In this document: piece by piece, positions 3,142 through 24,154 of the stretch | How the letters are laid out: each line of letters begins with the position of its first letter | Numbering within the stretch: position 1 is the stretch's first letter | Source of the DNA: a virus | Taxonomy: Duplodnaviria > Heunggongvirae > Uroviricota > Caudoviricetes | Length of the DNA: 53,127 nt | Direction: 5' to 3' (one strand) | Virus record (IMG/VR): IMGVR_UViG_3300046523_000117 | Made by a program: the position numbers and the translations under genes | The notes under the pieces: model-generated | The model's database searches: none | What the model saw: the letters and a program-made list of their open reading frames with translations, nothing else | Told to the model about the DNA's origin: nothing

Positions 3142-4175
3142 TTCTGTGCGTCTGCTAGTAGTCCGGCCATGATACGTTTGATTTTATTCTTATCCGCATC
3201 GGTTTCTTCCAATGCATCAATATATTCTTCAACGATTTCATCAACGGTACGGATGGCAGACACGGTGATTTTACCCGAGGCTGTAGCCTGACTCACATCG
3301 ATTCGATCAATTACAGAGATTTCATGCGCAACCGCTGCGATTGCTTCAACGATCTTTTCGAACTTCTTCACATCACCGCGATTTTTGACGGTAATCTTGA
3401 TGTTCATCCCGGCGTAGCGTTCCAGTTTTTTTGCATCAAAAGTGTCTGCATCGAAGTAGATACGGCTAAACTTCGGCATGTTATTTGATACAAACTCAAA
3501 GCTGCTATCGTCAGTGTCAAAGATCCAAACCCCGCGTTCATCATCCGCATCACCATAGGTCAACTGGTAAGGAGTGCCGATGTACTGGATGTGATTGTTC
3601 TTCGAAATGGTGTGGAAGTGACCAGACCAGACCTGAGAATAGTTATTCAGGAACTTTGATGATTCACCAGAAGACTCAATGCCCTTGTAATACTGGAACC
3701 CAGACAGCTCAAAGTGTCCGAGGCAAAGATTACTGGCACTGGAATTGATGAATTCCATGATTTCTTGGCGGTTGTCCCGGCAGATCCACGGAATCATGTC
3801 GATAGCAATTCCATCAATTGTCACAGCTTTCGGGCTGTTGTAAACCGTGAAATTGTCGTATTGAGACAGAAGCTCTTGAACCGAGTTCGGGAATATGTTT
3901 TCCCGTAGGTGCATATCATGGTTACCCACGATCACATGCCATTCCTGACCTTTGGTCTTCGGAATAAAATACTCGCGAACCAATTCCATCGTATCGTGAC
4001 GGATTGCCTTCCGGGAGTCGAAGAAATCCCCGGACTGGAATATGTGTTTGATCTTGTGCTTCTTGATCAGCGGAAAGATGAATTGATCAAATACCTGCAT
4101 CTGGTATTCGGCAGTCTCTTTATCGCCGTTGCGGTGACCGAAATGTAAGTCACCGATGAACAGAATTTTTGCCAT
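3138..4175 (-). CDS. gp47: Recombination endonuclease subunit, Mre11/SbcD-like
   Basis: GDLHFG, GDFFD, GNHD, GHFH phosphoesterase motifs; adjacent to gp46. Confidence 0.97.
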   Translation of the reverse strand: MAKILFIGDLHFGHRNGDKETAEYQMQVFDQFIFPLIKKHKIKHIFQSGDFFDSRKAIRHDTMELVREYFIPKTKGQEWHVIVGNHDMHLRENIFPNSVQELLSQYDNFTVYNSPKAVTIDGIAIDMIPWICRDNRQEIMEFINSSASNLCLGHFELSGFQYYKGIESSGESSKFLNNYSQVWSGHFHTISKNNHIQYIGTPYQLTYGDADDERGVWIFDTDDSSFEFVSNNMPKFSRIYFDADTFDAKKLERYAGMNIKITVKNRGDVKKFEKIVEAIAAVAHEISVIDRIDVSQATASGKITVSAIRTVDEIVEEYIDALEETDADKNKIKRIMAGLLADAQK

Positions 4176-5081: not shown

Positions 5082-5509
5082 AGCGTTACAATCTTTCCTG
5101 CTCTGATCGGTACTCGACCTTCACCCAGCACAACCATTTGGTATCGGTTATCCCCGAGTTCTATCAATTCTTTCCAATAGGGTTTCCACGGTCCAGTTAC
5201 AAGGAGCGTCCAACATCCATCGCTCTTTGTAATTCGATGATATTCATCCCTTGGGATATAGATCAATCGATTTCTGTTCCGATTAAGCTTTACAATCTTT
5301 TGATCAATTATGATTTCTTCGACGTAATTGCCCTTGAGCAACAGACTGAATGCCCCAAATGAATGGGTGTGAAATCTATCTTGACCACCAGATGTTTGAT
5401 GGAACTGGAATAGTTTGATGCTAAAAAGCTTCTTCCATTCCAGTATCGTTAACTCGGTGACGTTTTGATCACCTAAATTAATCGATTTTCGTTTCCAAAA
5501 TACCATCAT
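5078..5509 (-). CDS. Cupin-fold protein
   Basis: FHTHSF...GNYVEE...EYHRI metal-binding cupin-like motifs. Confidence 0.65.
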   Translation of the reverse strand: MMVFWKRKSINLGDQNVTELTILEWKKLFSIKLFQFHQTSGGQDRFHTHSFGAFSLLLKGNYVEEIIIDQKIVKLNRNRNRLIYIPRDEYHRITKSDGCWTLLVTGPWKPYWKELIELGDNRYQMVVLGEGRVPIRAGKIVTL

Positions 5510-8392: not shown

Positions 8393-8469
8393 TGGTGCAG
8401 TTAACGGGATTCGAACCCGTGTATGAGGAATTTAGAGTTCCCTGCTTTGCCAGACTTAGCTATAACTGC
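8393..8469 (-). tRNA. Amber suppressor tRNA (anticodon CUA)
   Basis: Full cloverleaf GCAGUUA/UAACUGC-ACCA, anticodon arm GGGAA-CUCUAAA-UUCCU. Confidence 0.88.
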
Positions 8470-9257: not shown

Positions 9258-9440
9258 TCAGTCAAAAATATTCAAAATATCTGCAACCGCTTCTAAACCA
9301 TCACCTACCGCATCCAGAACCGACCAGCTACTGCTAGAGGATTGGTGCGATTTGTACGGCTGATACACAGGCTTCGGCGTTTCAGCCTCTTGGATCGGTT
9401 GCATCAAATTCTCATCTGATTCGGTCATGCTTATCCCCAA
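9258..9440 (-). CDS. Hypothetical protein
   Basis: Short ORF overlapping the acb1 stop. Confidence 0.5.
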   Translation of the reverse strand: MGISMTESDENLMQPIQEAETPKPVYQPYKSHQSSSSSWSVLDAVGDGLEAVADILNIFD

Positions 9441-9931
9441 GACAGGTCAAGTGATTCTGAATATTCTGTACTGATCACGATCTTGCGTTCTGATAGGAAC
9501 GATACCGGTCCAAGCTGGATCGGGAAATCGCCAATATCATAGGACAAGGTGATGTGTGGAATGAAGCTAGGATGATCCCACGTTCCGTTGTGAATTTCCA
9601 TCAGATCAGCATGTCGAGCCGATAGAAAGTCGCAATCGTATTTCAGGACCAAAGCGTTCTTACCGCTCTGGGTCTTGAACACAGTCAATTCGAACTGATT
9701 GGTGTTAGATGTCGGAGCAACCGGATATTCCCCGAACGGAACATAATTTGGAAGCGGTCTGCGACTGAATAGAAGCGTGCTATGGAATTTCTGAGCATCA
9801 AGAGGATTTGGGATCATCAACGTTTCTTGTAGAAGCCGTAGATCCCGGATCGTGTACTGGTCAAAATGAACCCCAGCATACGTTCCGTGAACCCCTTCGA
9901 TTAAGAAGGGGAGCATTTCAATAAAATTCAA
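9431..9931 (-). CDS. acb1: 2H-phosphoesterase, anti-CBASS nuclease Acb1 / gp57B homolog
   Basis: Two HxT motifs (FHSTLLFSR, PHITLSYD) and GTYAG N-terminus as in T4 gp57B; located beside tRNA cluster as in T4. Confidence 0.85.
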   Translation of the reverse strand: MNFIEMLPFLIEGVHGTYAGVHFDQYTIRDLRLLQETLMIPNPLDAQKFHSTLLFSRRPLPNYVPFGEYPVAPTSNTNQFELTVFKTQSGKNALVLKYDCDFLSARHADLMEIHNGTWDHPSFIPHITLSYDIGDFPIQLGPVSFLSERKIVISTEYSESLDLSWG

Positions 9932-12489: not shown

Positions 12490-12771
12490 CTAATCGATCT
12501 TGACGTAATTCGGGATGTCCTGAATGTACTTCTTGATCAGAATCTTTGCGTGGCTTTTAATCGCACCGGCAAGTGCGAACCGATATTCGGCATCCAATTC
12601 TTTTTCCAGAAGGTCGGCTTTCACAAACTTAACTTCTAGTGGTGTTTTCACGCCCTTACGAACAATGAAGTCACCGAAAAATCTTGCATCACTGATAGTG
12701 CCCTTCATGACAAAATGGGCAACGCCCGTTCTATGCCACTGGACCTTAACAGTCTTTACATCAAATAACAT
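12490..12771 (-). CDS. Hypothetical protein
   Basis: ORF coupled to upstream ORF; ends in TAG. Confidence 0.65.
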   Translation of the reverse strand: MLFDVKTVKVQWHRTGVAHFVMKGTISDARFFGDFIVRKGVKTPLEVKFVKADLLEKELDAEYRFALAGAIKSHAKILIKKYIQDIPNYVKID

Positions 12772-15466: not shown

Positions 15467-15805
15467 TTAGCGCCTACGATTTGAGAGCAAATGTTCACGA
15501 ATTCGATCTGCCAGTGAGACAGCTTCTTCATGAACCTTGTGAATTGCGCTTTGATCTAGAACAGAACAATAACAACGGTTGATTGTAATAGACGCTGCTT
15601 TCTTGGTTCCCACGTTGACTAGAAGCCCATAACGGTCAACAAGTCGTTTGTATGACACAAGATCACTAGTTGCAATTGTTTCAGTCACCACACCATAACC
15701 TGTGTATCGCTTTCCAGCAGACTCACGGATATGGATAATATCACCAACTTCGATTGGAACTTTCATTAAATTCTCACAAGTTAATTGAATCACCGGGTCA
15801 GTCAC
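15467..15805 (-). CDS. Hypothetical protein
   Basis: ORF in operon; start uncertain. Confidence 0.6.
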   Translation of the reverse strand: MTDPVIQLTCENLMKVPIEVGDIIHIRESAGKRYTGYGVVTETIATSDLVSYKRLVDRYGLLVNVGTKKAASITINRCYCSVLDQSAIHKVHEEAVSLADRIREHLLSNRRR

Positions 15806-16050
15806 GCAACACCCTTTCGGGCACCCAATCTTTCAGGGCTTTACCGGTTAGCTGATTTTAGGGCTTTCGCCTTCGATTCAAATTTAGTATGTCCCGCAGG
15901 GTATTTGCCGGGTTATTATTCCCCACGATTACGACGCCATGACCAAGTTACCAACCTTGGCTTAACCGCTCGGTTGACCTCCCCACTACCTTTGATGCGG
16001 AATAGGCTGGATCGCCCTGTTTACGCATTTAAAGCCGTGGTGGCCTGAAC
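15805..16050 (-). ncRNA. Candidate ~245-nt structured RNA
   Basis: No credible minus-strand ORF; GGC-GAAA-GCC and CCC-GAAA-GGG tetraloop hairpins, GCCAAG/CUUGGU stem; directly after tRNA-Thr CCA. Confidence 0.55.
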
Positions 16051-16055
16051 ATATT

Positions 16056-16131
16056 TGGTGCCGGAAACAGGACTCGAACCCGCAACATCCTGATTACAAA
16101 ACAGGCGCTCTACCATTGGAGCTATTCCGGC
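16056..16131 (-). tRNA. tRNA-Thr(UGU)
   Basis: Cloverleaf, loop UU-UGU-AA. Confidence 0.93.
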
Positions 16132-16821: not shown

Positions 16822-16834
16822 AATTCATCAAATT

Positions 16835-17031
16835 TGGTCGTGGGGGCTGGACTCGAACCAACGACCTTCGGCTTAGTTGCCGATGCTCTTAAAAACCACC
16901 ATCGCTGCAAAGCTTACGCAAGATAGCTAATCCCCGTCCACATTCCAGCCACAGAGGCTCCTAGCGTCTAATCCCCGGTGCGCTCTCCGGCTTTCAACAT
17001 TCGGAATTTAATCCAACTGAGCTACCCCACG
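16835..17031 (-). ncRNA. tRNA-like RNA with ~120-nt insertion in the D loop and 6-nt anticodon loop
   Basis: CGUGGGG/CCCCACG-ACCA acceptor, D stem GCUC/GAGC split by insert (~16891-17009), anticodon arm UCGGC-AACUAA-GCCGA, canonical T arm. Confidence 0.75.
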
Positions 17032-17109
17032 TTGATTTTGGTTTTCGCCTTTACGGTAGACGGGGAACCATCGCGATCCCATAACCGATTAATACGTTTA
17101 CATCAAATT

Positions 17110-17196
17110 TGGCTCCACGAGTTGGACTCGAACCAACAAGACACTAAGGAAGCTCCGTTAACAGCGGAGTGCAGTACCAATTATGCTTATCGTGGA
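17110..17196 (-). tRNA. tRNA-Asn(GUU) with expanded variable loop
   Basis: Loop CU-GUU-AA, G73, CCA. Confidence 0.8.
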
Positions 17197-17327
17197 ATTA
17201 TAAAACTATTTAGTGAGTCGAAATCCAACCCACCAAAGATCGATTCGGATAAACCAGTTACCATCGTTCAATCCACCACCAAGGCGAATCATTCGGTTCT
17301 TGCTATCCATTGGAATCTTAGTCAGGG

Positions 17328-17587: not shown

Positions 17588-17664
17588 TGGTGGGGTCATC
17601 TGGATTTGCACCAGAACCTCCGAGGCTGAATGCCACGACGCTCTCCTAATTGAGCTACAACCCC
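17588..17664 (-). ncRNA. tRNA-like RNA, non-canonical anticodon arm (5-nt loop AUUCA)
   Basis: Acceptor, D and T arms and CCA intact; arm GUGGC-AUUCA-GCCUC. Confidence 0.7.
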
Positions 17665-17832: not shown

Positions 17833-17909
17833 TGGTGGGTTTGGATGGAATTGCACCACCGACGCATCGGGCTTCGACCCAACCGCTCTACTAACTGAGC
17901 TACGCACCC
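17833..17909 (-). ncRNA. tRNA-like RNA, Phe-like but 6-nt loop UCGAAG
   Basis: D/T arms and CCA intact; anticodon arm UUGGG-UCGAAG-CCCGA. Confidence 0.7.
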
Positions 17910-18059: not shown

Positions 18060-18134
18060 TGGTGCGGACGGCTGGAATTCAACCAACACTGTCACCCCGC
18101 AAATGGGGCTGCCTCTACATTGGGCTACATCCAC
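18060..18134 (-). ncRNA. tRNA-like RNA, 6-nt anticodon loop AUUUGC
   Basis: GUGGAUG/CGUCCGC-ACCA acceptor; arm GCCCC-AUUUGC-GGGGU. Confidence 0.65.
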
Positions 18135-18770: not shown

Positions 18771-18861
18771 TGGTGGGAAGGGGCAGATTCGAACTACCAT
18801 CCTATGACACCCTTCTAGCTAGTGATGTCAATTGCTTTATCCAGCAATAAGCTACCTTCCC
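18771..18861 (-). ncRNA. tRNA-like RNA with extended anticodon arm
   Basis: GGGAAGG/CCUUCCC-ACCA acceptor, T loop UUCGAAU; arm UGACAUC/GGUGUCA with 12-nt loop. Confidence 0.72.
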
Positions 18862-19051: not shown

Positions 19052-19138
19052 TGGTAGGTTGTGATGGATTCGAACCACCCGGATTGCCATCACAACCGAA
19101 GTCGAGTTAACAATGCTGTCCCATATAGCAGACAACCC
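19052..19138 (-). ncRNA. tRNA-like RNA whose anticodon arm is a long helix capped by cUUCGg
   Basis: GGGUUGU/ACAACCU-ACCA acceptor, T arm GGUGGUUCGAAUCCAUC; arm AUUGUUA..CGAC-UUCG-GUUG..UGGCAAU. Confidence 0.75.
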
Positions 19139-22448: not shown

Positions 22449-23840
22449 TTACCAGTCGTAGCGGCTGATATTCACGGCTTCCAACATCATAGACATTGGA
22501 GTCATTTCAGGAACATCAGTTTGCGCCAGAACAGCTTTCAGAATTGCAGGGCTGAAACCAGACAGCATACAGGTTCGACCCGCCCCGAATGTAACCGGGA
22601 AGTTCGGTTGATTGGCAGCAACGATCCAGAAAATGATTTCAGGACGTTTGTAGCCAGCGGAAGCATACATGTTGTCGATCATGATATAGGCCGATTCTTT
22701 GTCCCAACCGCGTGCCGCCGAATTGAACTGCATATCCGAAATCAACAGGATCTTGGTTGGCATATCCGAAGCCGGTACACTGTTCTTACGAGCAGTTTCC
22801 AGAATCAAACGGAATGTCTTTTCCAGATCGGTCGAACCGCCCCACGGTGCAGACTTGGTAGTCTGGTAACGCTGGGTCAATGTCTTCTGATTGCTCAGAT
22901 CGATCATTTTCGGATTCGAATCGAAGGTAATGAATTTGTCTTGGAAAGCGCCTTTAGAGCGTTCCGCAACATACATACCCAACGAAATCGCAACATCCAT
23001 CGCAGACAGGTTTGCAGATACCGGCGTGTTCATCGAAGCCGAAACGTCGATAATCGGCAGGATGTTTTCGGTAGAGCCTTCCATGTAGTCAGGCAGAGCC
23101 TTCCACTGGGCATCAGCGATACCGGCAACCCCATTCAACCCACGAATTACATCATATGGGAAAATGGCCCCCGCATTGATCTTGGTCTTGCCAGTTGCCA
23201 GACCGTCGATATATTCCTGATACAGCTCTGGAGTATGGCGACTGAATGCTTTCTGGTAGTTCTTCGCAGCCAGCGATGGAATCTTGCCGAACTCAATTTC
23301 ATCCCATTGCTGGGCGCACATTTGCTGTTCAACAGTCTTCGACAGACCGACGATCAGTTTACGGTATTGACGCTCGGTCAATTCGAAAGCATTCATGAAG
23401 AATCGGGAATACTTCTTGCCTTCACGCGGCATCCATTTTGCTGCAAGACCATTCTTCTCGACCAGTGCCTGAGCAAAGGTTTCAGCGATCACACCGTCGA
23501 TTCGATCCGAATTACCGATCACACCAAACAGGTCATCCCAACGGCCAATCTCTGGAACCTTGGCGATCAGACGAACCACATCCTCGGTGTTATTATGCGC
23601 AAGGCTGATCAACAGCTTACGGAAGGTTTCACGTTCACCAGCACCACCGCGAACATCACGCGCCCATTGAAGGATACGGAATGCAATGTTTCGATCTTCA
23701 CGAACAGCCTTAAAGAAGGCTGGAGTAATGTCCTTACCACGCGAGGAACCAATCTGAGCGAACAGATCGACACACGCATTCAGGGACGATTTCACAGCAG
23801 TCATACCGTTGGTGGTTTGGGTCAGGTTCTGGTAGCTCAT
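22449..23840 (-). CDS. Ro60/TROVE-like helical repeat + vWA protein (DUF2828-type)
   Basis: N-terminal RDVRGGAGER, GRWDDL, LAAKWMPRE helical domain; C-terminal MIDAS DVSASM, GGSTDL, ISDMQF, SGFSP. Confidence 0.82.
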   Translation of the reverse strand: MSYQNLTQTTNGMTAVKSSLNACVDLFAQIGSSRGKDITPAFFKAVREDRNIAFRILQWARDVRGGAGERETFRKLLISLAHNNTEDVVRLIAKVPEIGRWDDLFGVIGNSDRIDGVIAETFAQALVEKNGLAAKWMPREGKKYSRFFMNAFELTERQYRKLIVGLSKTVEQQMCAQQWDEIEFGKIPSLAAKNYQKAFSRHTPELYQEYIDGLATGKTKINAGAIFPYDVIRGLNGVAGIADAQWKALPDYMEGSTENILPIIDVSASMNTPVSANLSAMDVAISLGMYVAERSKGAFQDKFITFDSNPKMIDLSNQKTLTQRYQTTKSAPWGGSTDLEKTFRLILETARKNSVPASDMPTKILLISDMQFNSAARGWDKESAYIMIDNMYASAGYKRPEIIFWIVAANQPNFPVTFGAGRTCMLSGFSPAILKAVLAQTDVPEMTPMSMMLEAVNISRYDW

Positions 23841-24146: not shown

Positions 24147-24154
24147 TATTTATA
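24147..24154 (-). promoter_or_regulatory. T4-type late promoter TATAAATA
   Basis: Exact gp55 consensus; also overlaps the -10 of a GTTTAGA-type promoter. Confidence 0.7.

Follow-up and report, generated by a model that had tools for sequence, protein, structure and literature searches.

The 53,127-nt stretch of DNA analysed here (hereafter the window) is part of the genome of a T4-like phage, as indicated by the sliding clamp, late sigma factor, baseplate and tail genes among its 41 scanned proteins, and its nearest cultured relatives by sliding clamp are the Pseudomonas phages Milchi and Astolliot (56%). It carries a tRNA cluster of ~21 kb, in which ARAGORN (default settings) called 28 tRNA genes, all on the minus strand. 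On this same strand, flanked by tRNA-Asn(GUU) and tRNA-Thr(UGU), we read a 197-nt tRNA-like RNA gene running from 17031 to 16835. This element was not among the ARAGORN calls, none of the 27 tRNA matches obtained in the window at the Rfam gathering level fell on it, and the Rfam tRNA family (RF00005) aligned to its 3' half only, with a score of 17.8 bits, below the gathering threshold of 29. Folding of its minus strand was more stable than that of shuffled sequences (z -2.19, with 4 of 200 shuffles equally stable), and folding of the plus strand was no better than that of shuffles (z -0.56).

In the element, the acceptor stem has 7 bp, the D stem 4 bp, and the anticodon and T stems 5 bp each. 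U8/A9 and G18-G19-A20 are present, the variable loop is 5 nt long and the T loop is canonical; A73 and an encoded CCA close the gene, and an AAUUU-type trailer follows, as after many tRNAs of the cluster. The distance from A20 to G22 is 123 nt versus 2 in insert-free relatives, giving a net insert of ~121 nt. A first-pass annotation of this DNA had described a complete tRNA frame interrupted in the D loop by ~120 nt, and this description is borne out on the minus strand, with a net insert of 121 nt; it had left the strand unstated and had missed both the arginine-type frame and the signature of the 6-nt-loop family described below. Its 6-nt anticodon loop, AACUAA, which lacks U33, was likewise recovered, as were the CCGG hairpin with an 8-nt loop and the CGCU downstream of it. 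The features are the following, position p of the RNA corresponding to 17032 minus the window coordinate:

16835..17031, minus strand: whole tRNA-like RNA gene, 197 nt (sequence and homologs of 197-198 nt; 209.7 bits with model R1, by construction)
17025..17031, minus strand: 5' strand of the acceptor stem (C1); 7 of 7 pairs kept in six sequences, three changed on both sides
17012..17024, minus strand: U8/A9, 5' strand of the D stem and D loop through G18-G19-A20; invariant in six sequences, A20 being arginine-type
16889..17011, minus strand: D-loop insert, 123 nt between A20 and G22, its last base being the canonical A21
16993..17011, minus strand: 5' segment of the insert including UUAAA, with an invariant CGAAUG at 17003-16998 (invariant columns)
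16975..16990, minus strand: short hairpin P2 (CCGG/CCGG), 8-nt loop with GCGC; 2 of 4 pairs changed on both sides
16964..16966, minus strand: invariant CGC that may pair with the P2 loop in a pseudoknot; three pairs, no variation
16890..16963, minus strand: long irregular 3' hairpin P3; 16 pairs, seven changed on both sides, 90.6% of cells paired
16885..16888, minus strand: 3' strand of the D stem, GAGC; invariant
16868..16883, minus strand: anticodon arm, 5-bp stem with the AACUAA loop (16878-16873); 3 of 5 pairs changed on both sides
16846..16862, minus strand: T arm with canonical T loop (sequence, alignment)
16835..16845, minus strand: 3' strand of the acceptor stem, A73 and encoded CCA (sequence)
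24147..24154, minus strand: TATAAATA, a late-promoter match in the orientation of the cluster, with tRNA-Trp ~95 bases downstream

An assembly slip is ruled out as the origin of the element. Run X1, which may be the source of this DNA, contains the stretch in one contig at a depth of 414 with no alternative letters, and run X3, from a separate study, covers positions 16830-17249 with 16 other letters, one of them listed inside the element, where AACUAA becomes AUCUAA. Regarding expression signals, TATAAATA, the T4 late-promoter consensus, occurs four times in the window against 1.9 expected, which is weak support alone, and a scan for sigma-70 promoters and terminators gave no excess over shuffles.

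The cluster holds other unusual sequences on the minus strand. Further aberrant tRNA-like genes with odd loops or extended arms were seen at 17588-17664, 17833-17909, 18060-18134, 18771-18861 and 19052-19138. After tRNA-Thr, a long non-coding stretch (15770-16056) matches L010 at 87% identity over 286 nt, and L009, L011, L020 and L105 at ~90% over 120 nt; it has no Rfam match at the gathering level and may be a further structured RNA.

Conservation and covariation in related phages

Pattern and protein searches recovered full homologs of 197-198 nt on five other phage contigs (L009, L010, L011, L020 and L105), so that the conservation in related phages whose absence the first-pass annotation had named beforehand as grounds for rejection is indeed seen. 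All five lie upstream of tRNA-Thr and, in the four with enough flanking DNA, also downstream of tRNA-Asn, and the anticodon loop is 6 nt long in each of them as in the window. Among 25 viral loci encoding a DUF2828 protein, the element is present at four, which are those with 63-84% protein identity. A BLASTN search of 50,697 phage records with the element matched short pieces in 279 records, none covering 80% of it. One further pattern match, L003, was discarded as it has no tRNA frame, and a pattern for frames with long inserts returned seven matches, namely four known members and three tandem tRNA pairs.

In an alignment of the six sequences covering the cloverleaf, P2 and P3, 92.7% of cells are paired and 15 of the 48 pairs have changed on both sides (acceptor stem 3, anticodon stem 3, P2 2, P3 7), a number reached in 0 of 500 shuffles, slid controls giving 2-7 pairs; these counts come from only six related sequences and from a structure drawn from the same sequences, which leans the figures in its favour, and the tool warns that kinship alone can beat shuffles. 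Mean pairwise identity is 0.95 and 0.90 in the two frame parts, 0.83 in the 5' part of the insert and 0.57 in P3, where the sequence varies and the pairing is kept, the total length staying at 197-198 nt. The P2 stem differs in L010 and L011, and when homologs are folded one by one, their inserts do not adopt a common fold. Taken together, the comparison supports structural selection on the tRNA frame, with insert helices that appear to covary, and the element is, as predicted from sequence, a real, conserved and structured non-coding RNA gene.

Two of the pairings put forward by the first-pass annotation fared less clearly. The helix UUAAA/UUUAA, thought to close the insert, can form, but its five pairs never vary in the six sequences and show no covariation; it also shares bases with the foot of the better-supported P3, of which one position alternates between G-U and A-U. 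Similarly, the proposed pseudoknot between the P2 loop and CGCU can be drawn as GCG/CGC, but its three pairs are invariant in the six sequences and show no covariation. Since both are invariant, covariation neither supports nor refutes either of them. The GCGC palindrome in the P2 loop might also allow a kissing-loop dimer, which the sequence makes possible.

The same alignment bears on whether the element could be a pseudogene, i.e. a tRNA-Arg broken by a neutral insertion. Phage tRNA clusters do hold many degenerate tRNA-like genes, several of them in the window, but the frame and the insert both carry compensatory changes, and the length and slot of the insert are fixed even though the DUF2828 proteins of these phages are only 58-84% identical. 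Covariation largely refutes such a decayed origin, to which we attach a minimal probability.

Milchi and Astolliot, reached via the sliding-clamp protein and synteny, carry a gene in the equivalent slot. In both genomes, a 197-nt RNA gene lies between tRNA-Asn and tRNA-Thr (Milchi PQ464597.1, 67651-67847; Astolliot OM982621.1, 67004-67200). Standard annotation misses or mislabels such genes, the Milchi one being annotated as tRNA-OTHER and the Astolliot one unannotated. In each, A20 is followed by 122 nt, and the 7-nt anticodon loop contains C33, C35 and G36. Their inserts gave no BLASTN alignment with that of the window, and share with it CGAA-N-G, a GCGC and the foot of the 3' hairpin. The two genes differ from each other at three positions, two of which turn G-U pairs of a short 3' hairpin into G-C and A-U. 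A well-formed tRNA with a CUA (amber) anticodon and a normal 7-nt loop, found in the window at 8393-8469 (minus strand), is also present in both phages.

The first-pass annotation had left open whether the insert is an RNA domain displayed on a tRNA or an unusual intron. If it were an undescribed intron, self- or protein-spliced, its removal would give a tRNA-like RNA of ~75 nt, and several observations would fit: insert-free members of the frame exist (L102, L103, L110), the ends of the insert can pair (UUAAA/UUUAA), and Milchi and Astolliot, with their 7-nt anticodon loop, have one U...G boundary pair that would leave a 12-nt D loop keeping G18-G19-A20. In addition, the available text on Lak phages describes inserts in phage tRNA genes that are predicted to be introns and have intron-free alleles (PMC6784885). 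Against this, a search of Rfam with the insert, as the first-pass annotation had suggested, gave no match at E<=10, known self-cleaving ribozymes, riboswitches and introns included; Rfam detects no group I catalytic core, and the 41-124-nt inserts of the wider family share no catalytic core either. Neither the window nor its five close homologs offer a U...G boundary pair that would leave a D loop of 7-12 nt with G18-G19 retained, and the spliced product would retain a 6-nt loop without U33, incompatible with normal decoding. No insert-free allele was found in close phages, no splicing endonuclease, as an archaeal-type bulge-helix-bulge intron would need, is encoded among the 41 proteins scanned in the visible 53 kb of genome, and no deletion of the insert occurs in the run contigs that span it (those of X9, X15, X24 and X7 did not cover it). 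In contigs from runs X8 and X23, the frame is kept and 94 bases of the insert are swapped for 93 others. No RNA run was found for the region, and X23 and X24 are flagged as probably DNA. Altogether, we consider splicing of the insert improbable.

A wider family of arginine-type frames

A 6-nt-loop pattern extending from the D stem to the T arm gave four viral matches, all known, eight from metagenomes and two from genomes, the latter being one Acidobacteriota MAG and one Terracidiphilus MAG; the metagenome and genome matches include L105 and a duplicate of L010. Some members of this frame have the same loop and no insert (L102, L103/L104 and L110), and others bear hairpin-like D-loop inserts of 41 nt (L106), 49 nt (L108), 65 nt (L107) and 76 nt (L111). 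A loop-blind pattern for 35-65-nt inserts added one new member, the viral L128, with a 64-nt insert and the loop UUUUAA. Across genomes, the slot after A20 carries from 0 to 124 nt, and most insert-free and short-insert members have no encoded CCA. In L002, the anticodon arm is identical letter for letter to that of the window and a long insert occupies the variable arm instead, the D loop being of normal length and devoid of its GG, of A20 and of G18-G19. RNAs of the L002 type were not found in phage records, nor those of the L107 type in plasmids.

The identity set of arginyl-tRNA synthetase (ArgRS) comprises A20, C35, U/G36 and A/G73. The element holds these tRNA-Arg identity bases when its 6-nt loop is numbered from the 3' stem, which gives C35, U36, a purine at 37 and A38 as in tRNA-Arg(UCU), one base of the 5' side being missing. 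Among the ordinary tRNAs of these phage loci, an A follows the GG of the D loop in 32 of 38 arginine tRNAs versus 44 of 462 others. Across the wider comparison, 17 of the 18 sequences compared have A20 and 16 of them have a loop with C35 and U/G36, bearing in mind that 15 of the 18 came from patterns or homologs requiring an AWCURA loop, leaving only A20 and the Milchi pair unforced. The two sequences without C35 are L128 and a gene of Rhodococcus phage ReqiPepy6. The latter (L112:1479-1554), annotated 'tRNA-OTHER', has A20, the 6-nt loop AGCAAU and no insert.

Distant members share the frame and no detectable insert sequence, and may consequently do different jobs. Together with the structural selection on the frame and the covarying helices of the insert, the fact that slot and frame hold other inserts elsewhere argues for the alternative that the first-pass annotation had offered, an RNA domain displayed on a tRNA. 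One could suppose that the frame is only a processing or stabilising cassette for an active insert (a ribozyme, an antisense RNA or a protein sponge) and that its arginine-type bases are relics, since the cargo is exchangeable on a constant frame and the 5' segment of the insert is well conserved (0.83). But insert-free members and unrelated carriers have preserved the odd 6-nt loop, for which a neutral cassette would have no use. Outside the frame, moreover, the insert core turned up only in what look like chance matches: a pattern for it gave 62 matches, four being known homologs, and none of the 56 others (out of 58) searched with model R1 reached E<=1e-6. We thus give little credence to a purely passive frame.

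Some specific activities were also considered and rejected. For tmRNA, the D stem is present and stops fall at differing places in all three frames across homologs, with no conserved ORF. Resemblances to HDV-like (CGAAUG) and twister-like (CCGG hairpin) ribozymes did not fit the helix order on inspection and had no Rfam support, and, for an RsmA/CsrA sponge, GGA counts range from 1 to 6 across homologs.

As for the genomic setting of distant members, L106 adjoins an IS1595 transposase, L110 adjoins an integrase and a GIY-YIG nuclease, and L103 lies near a weak HEPN match. In a survey of Acidobacteriota, the pattern occurred in one of 401 genomes, the centre genome itself, and was not found in the rest of those searched. 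These neighbours and this sporadic occurrence point to mobile DNA as the carrier of the frame. No protein family is shared among the neighbours of distant members, in a scan of 30 ORFs taken mostly from a list of 39. As a tentative generalisation, which we regard as possible and rather doubtful, the AWCUAA-loop chassis with arginine identity may form a family of modular display platforms on phages and mobile DNA, whose body would dock ArgRS or a tRNA-cutting defence nuclease and whose swappable D-loop or variable-arm cargo would recruit a second protein.

Candidate roles and known phage RNAs

For the element itself, we propose, with a rough probability of 0.55, that its conserved tRNA-Arg-type frame is that of an unspliced, non-decoding RNA serving as a decoy or tether aimed at host proteins recognising tRNA-Arg, with the insert on display. 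The element would be co-transcribed with the cluster and excised like its neighbours by host tRNA-processing enzymes (RNase P and 3' trimming), and the conservation of core tertiary bases suggests an L-shaped fold. A20, C35, U/G36 and A73 may let it bind ArgRS and perhaps be charged, while the loop, one base short and devoid of U33, would keep it from normal decoding. The cargo, made of the 5' segment, the hairpin with the GCGC loop and the long 3' hairpin, would bind a second partner. Comparison of the family places this cargo after A20 in most members and in the variable arm in one relative, L002. In tRNA structures, positions 20a/20b and the variable arm are close together, which would explain the location of the L002 cargo in another arm. 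Several considerations weigh against a decoy or tether: a bulky insert right after A20 could block ArgRS, the arginine-type bases may be inherited without being used, and L002 is devoid of A20 and G18-G19, as are L128 and the ReqiPepy6 gene of C35.

Decoding by the element does not seem needed, since ordinary tRNA-Arg(ACG) and tRNA-Arg(UCU) are already present in the cluster of the window and the phages with the element carry ordinary genes for tRNA-Arg(ACG) and/or (UCU). An unusual form of translation could still be envisaged, in which the element, once charged, enters the ribosome and through its short loop provokes frameshifting, read-through of stops or stalling at selected codons. With its acceptor and T arms intact and a CCA present, it could indeed be bound by EF-Tu, and the loops of close homologs contain CUA or CUG. 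We nevertheless judge such a role very unlikely: U33 is absent and A32 invariant, the Milchi gene has a different loop in the equivalent slot, a D-loop insert of 121 nt would probably cause steric clashes within the ribosome, and the phage has a separate CUA tRNA with a normal 7-nt loop (8393-8469).

A gene of the same cluster suggests another partner:

22449..23840, minus strand: DUF2828/DUF7788 protein with a predicted Ro60 fold, possible partner of the element (Pfam, AlphaFold, Foldseek)

The AlphaFold model of this protein has a mean pLDDT of 80.5, and its best Foldseek matches are all Ro60 proteins, the first being 9kop, a protein of Thermus phage phiLo (E 1.9e-9), with no match to solved Ro60 at the sequence level. 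DUF2828/DUF7788 proteins, labelled 'RNA-binding protein', are widespread in phages (710 matching phage records), and our literature search combining DUF2828 and phage retrieved no paper. The element might then be a Y-RNA-like partner of the DUF2828 protein, which would bind CGAAUG, with the tRNA body tethering an effector as YrlA does. In line with this, the DUF2828 gene lies 5.4 kb from the element in a shared cluster and is also present in all close relatives and in Milchi and Astolliot, and CGAA-N-G occurs in the insert of all eight long phage members. Moreover, CGAA is the motif that served to find the Y-like RNAs of phage phiLo, in the available text of a study on phage Ro60 with Y-like RNAs (PMC12135203), and Yrn1 of D. 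radiodurans has been modelled with a 6-nt 'anticodon loop' in the accessible part of PMC4201824.

Several observations make this association unlikely. The insert has no match to YrlA or Y_RNA in Rfam, and the arms of the element follow the order of a tRNA rather than the T-AS-D permutation described for YrlA in the available text of PMC4201824, in which the RNA ends lie within the Ro-binding stem. The invariant site, YYCGAAUG, has no leading G as in the motif GNCGAAN0-1G of the same text (PMC4201824); this motif matches somewhere in 4 of the 8 long members, never at the invariant site, and short-insert members have no CGAANG. In the DNA fetched, 21 of the 25 DUF2828 loci have no element. Instead, KVP40, S13, Aeh1, LAh_6 and L027 carry another class of long tRNA-like RNAs, marked by a CAGCA motif, among them the following:

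L117:2849-2971, 3477-3592, 3600-3723 and 5274-5389: tRNA frames of 113-127 nt whose anticodon arm is a hairpin plus a CAGCA-type module
L115:16871-16994 and 17002-17114; L116:19166-19287; L119:12503-12622; L027:11884-12006 and 12585-12711: further CAGCA-type tRNA frames of 113-127 nt

The window itself has eight intergenic spacers with an ACAGCA motif on the minus strand (8590, 8772, 12268, 14173, 15102, 19119, 19587 and 19966), several of which are preceded by a GGAUAC-like stretch. Given the CAGCA-class RNAs of other DUF2828 phages and these eight motifs, such RNAs appear to be better candidate ligands of the Ro60-fold protein than the element.

The decoy or tether that we favour can be set against several known systems. 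Like the element, species 1 and 2 of T4 (rnaC and rnaD; NC_000866.4) and RNA1 and RNA2 of T5 (NC_005859.1) sit among tRNA genes, possess a T arm and an acceptor-type end, are longer than tRNAs and carry an extra domain. The T4 RNAs are late RNAs listed with unknown function in the accessible texts (PMC9697503, PMC12685909), and those of T5 are annotated as 'tRNA-like stable RNA with unknown functions' (NC_005859.1). In our folds, a long hairpin replaces the D arm of T4 rnaC, whereas the element keeps all four stems, and the anticodon arm is extended in T5 RNA1 and RNA2, whereas the element has its cargo inside the D loop and a 6-nt arginine-type loop. No sequence match links the element to any of these four RNAs. 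On this basis, the element would belong to the descriptive class of phage tRNA-like RNAs, known here from genes, with a different build.

Compared with bacterial and phage tRNA-Arg (RF00005), the element shares the 7/4/5/5 stems, G18-G19-A20, C35, U/G36, A73 and CCA, and differs by its D loop of ~130 nt, its 6-nt anticodon loop without U33 and its Rfam score below gathering. Unlike YrlA (Rfam RF02553), the element is not circularly permuted and ends in a genuine acceptor with CCA; its CGAA motif is not preceded by the leading G, and Rfam gives no match. According to the parts available of PMC4201824 and PMC12135203, YrlA and phage Y RNAs resemble it by a tRNA-mimicking domain with an extra module, a Ro60-fold gene nearby and CGAA. 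The Lak phage tRNAs, as described in the accessible portion of PMC6784885, also have conserved inserts within phage tRNA genes; in contrast to them, the element has no insert-free allele in close phages, and the frame left without its insert would be non-decoding. Finally, the long 'pseudo-tRNAs' annotated in GenBank for KVP40, Aeh1 and Cronobacter phage S13 combine, like the element, a tRNA frame and a cargo in DUF2828-bearing T4-like phages, but their CAGCA module replaces the anticodon arm and their D loop is normal.

We found no description of an arginine-type RNA with a D-loop cargo and a 6-nt loop in the literature covered, mainly open-access main texts. The available text of PMC5389517 deals with 8/4 and 9/3 acceptor/T stems and contains neither 'D-loop' nor 'anticodon loop'. 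While the stable tRNA-like RNAs of T4 and T5 have long been known with a function still listed as unknown, the anatomy of the element is sharply defined, with an intact frame, arginine identity bases, a disabled anticodon loop and an exchangeable cargo slot. The ortholog of a cultured phage, Milchi, which grows on P. poae, makes processing, charging, partner binding and fitness effects directly testable. Should the element act as a decoy for ArgRS or for a nuclease, it would represent an RNA-based route by which phages manipulate translation or defence. It also suggests that the D loop of a tRNA may tolerate a domain of 120 nt, which makes this site attractive to those engineering tRNA scaffolds.

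Two minor observations concern the surroundings of the element. By inspection, a compact sequence resembling an H-type pseudoknot lies a few bases 5' of the element in L009, L011, L020, L105, L100 and L101, and is not evident in the window or in L010. Elsewhere in the window, a gp57B-like gene on the minus strand (9431-9931), labelled 'RNA ligase' by PHROGs, matches the Pfam family Acb1 (anti-CBASS) with an E-value of 1.9e-32.
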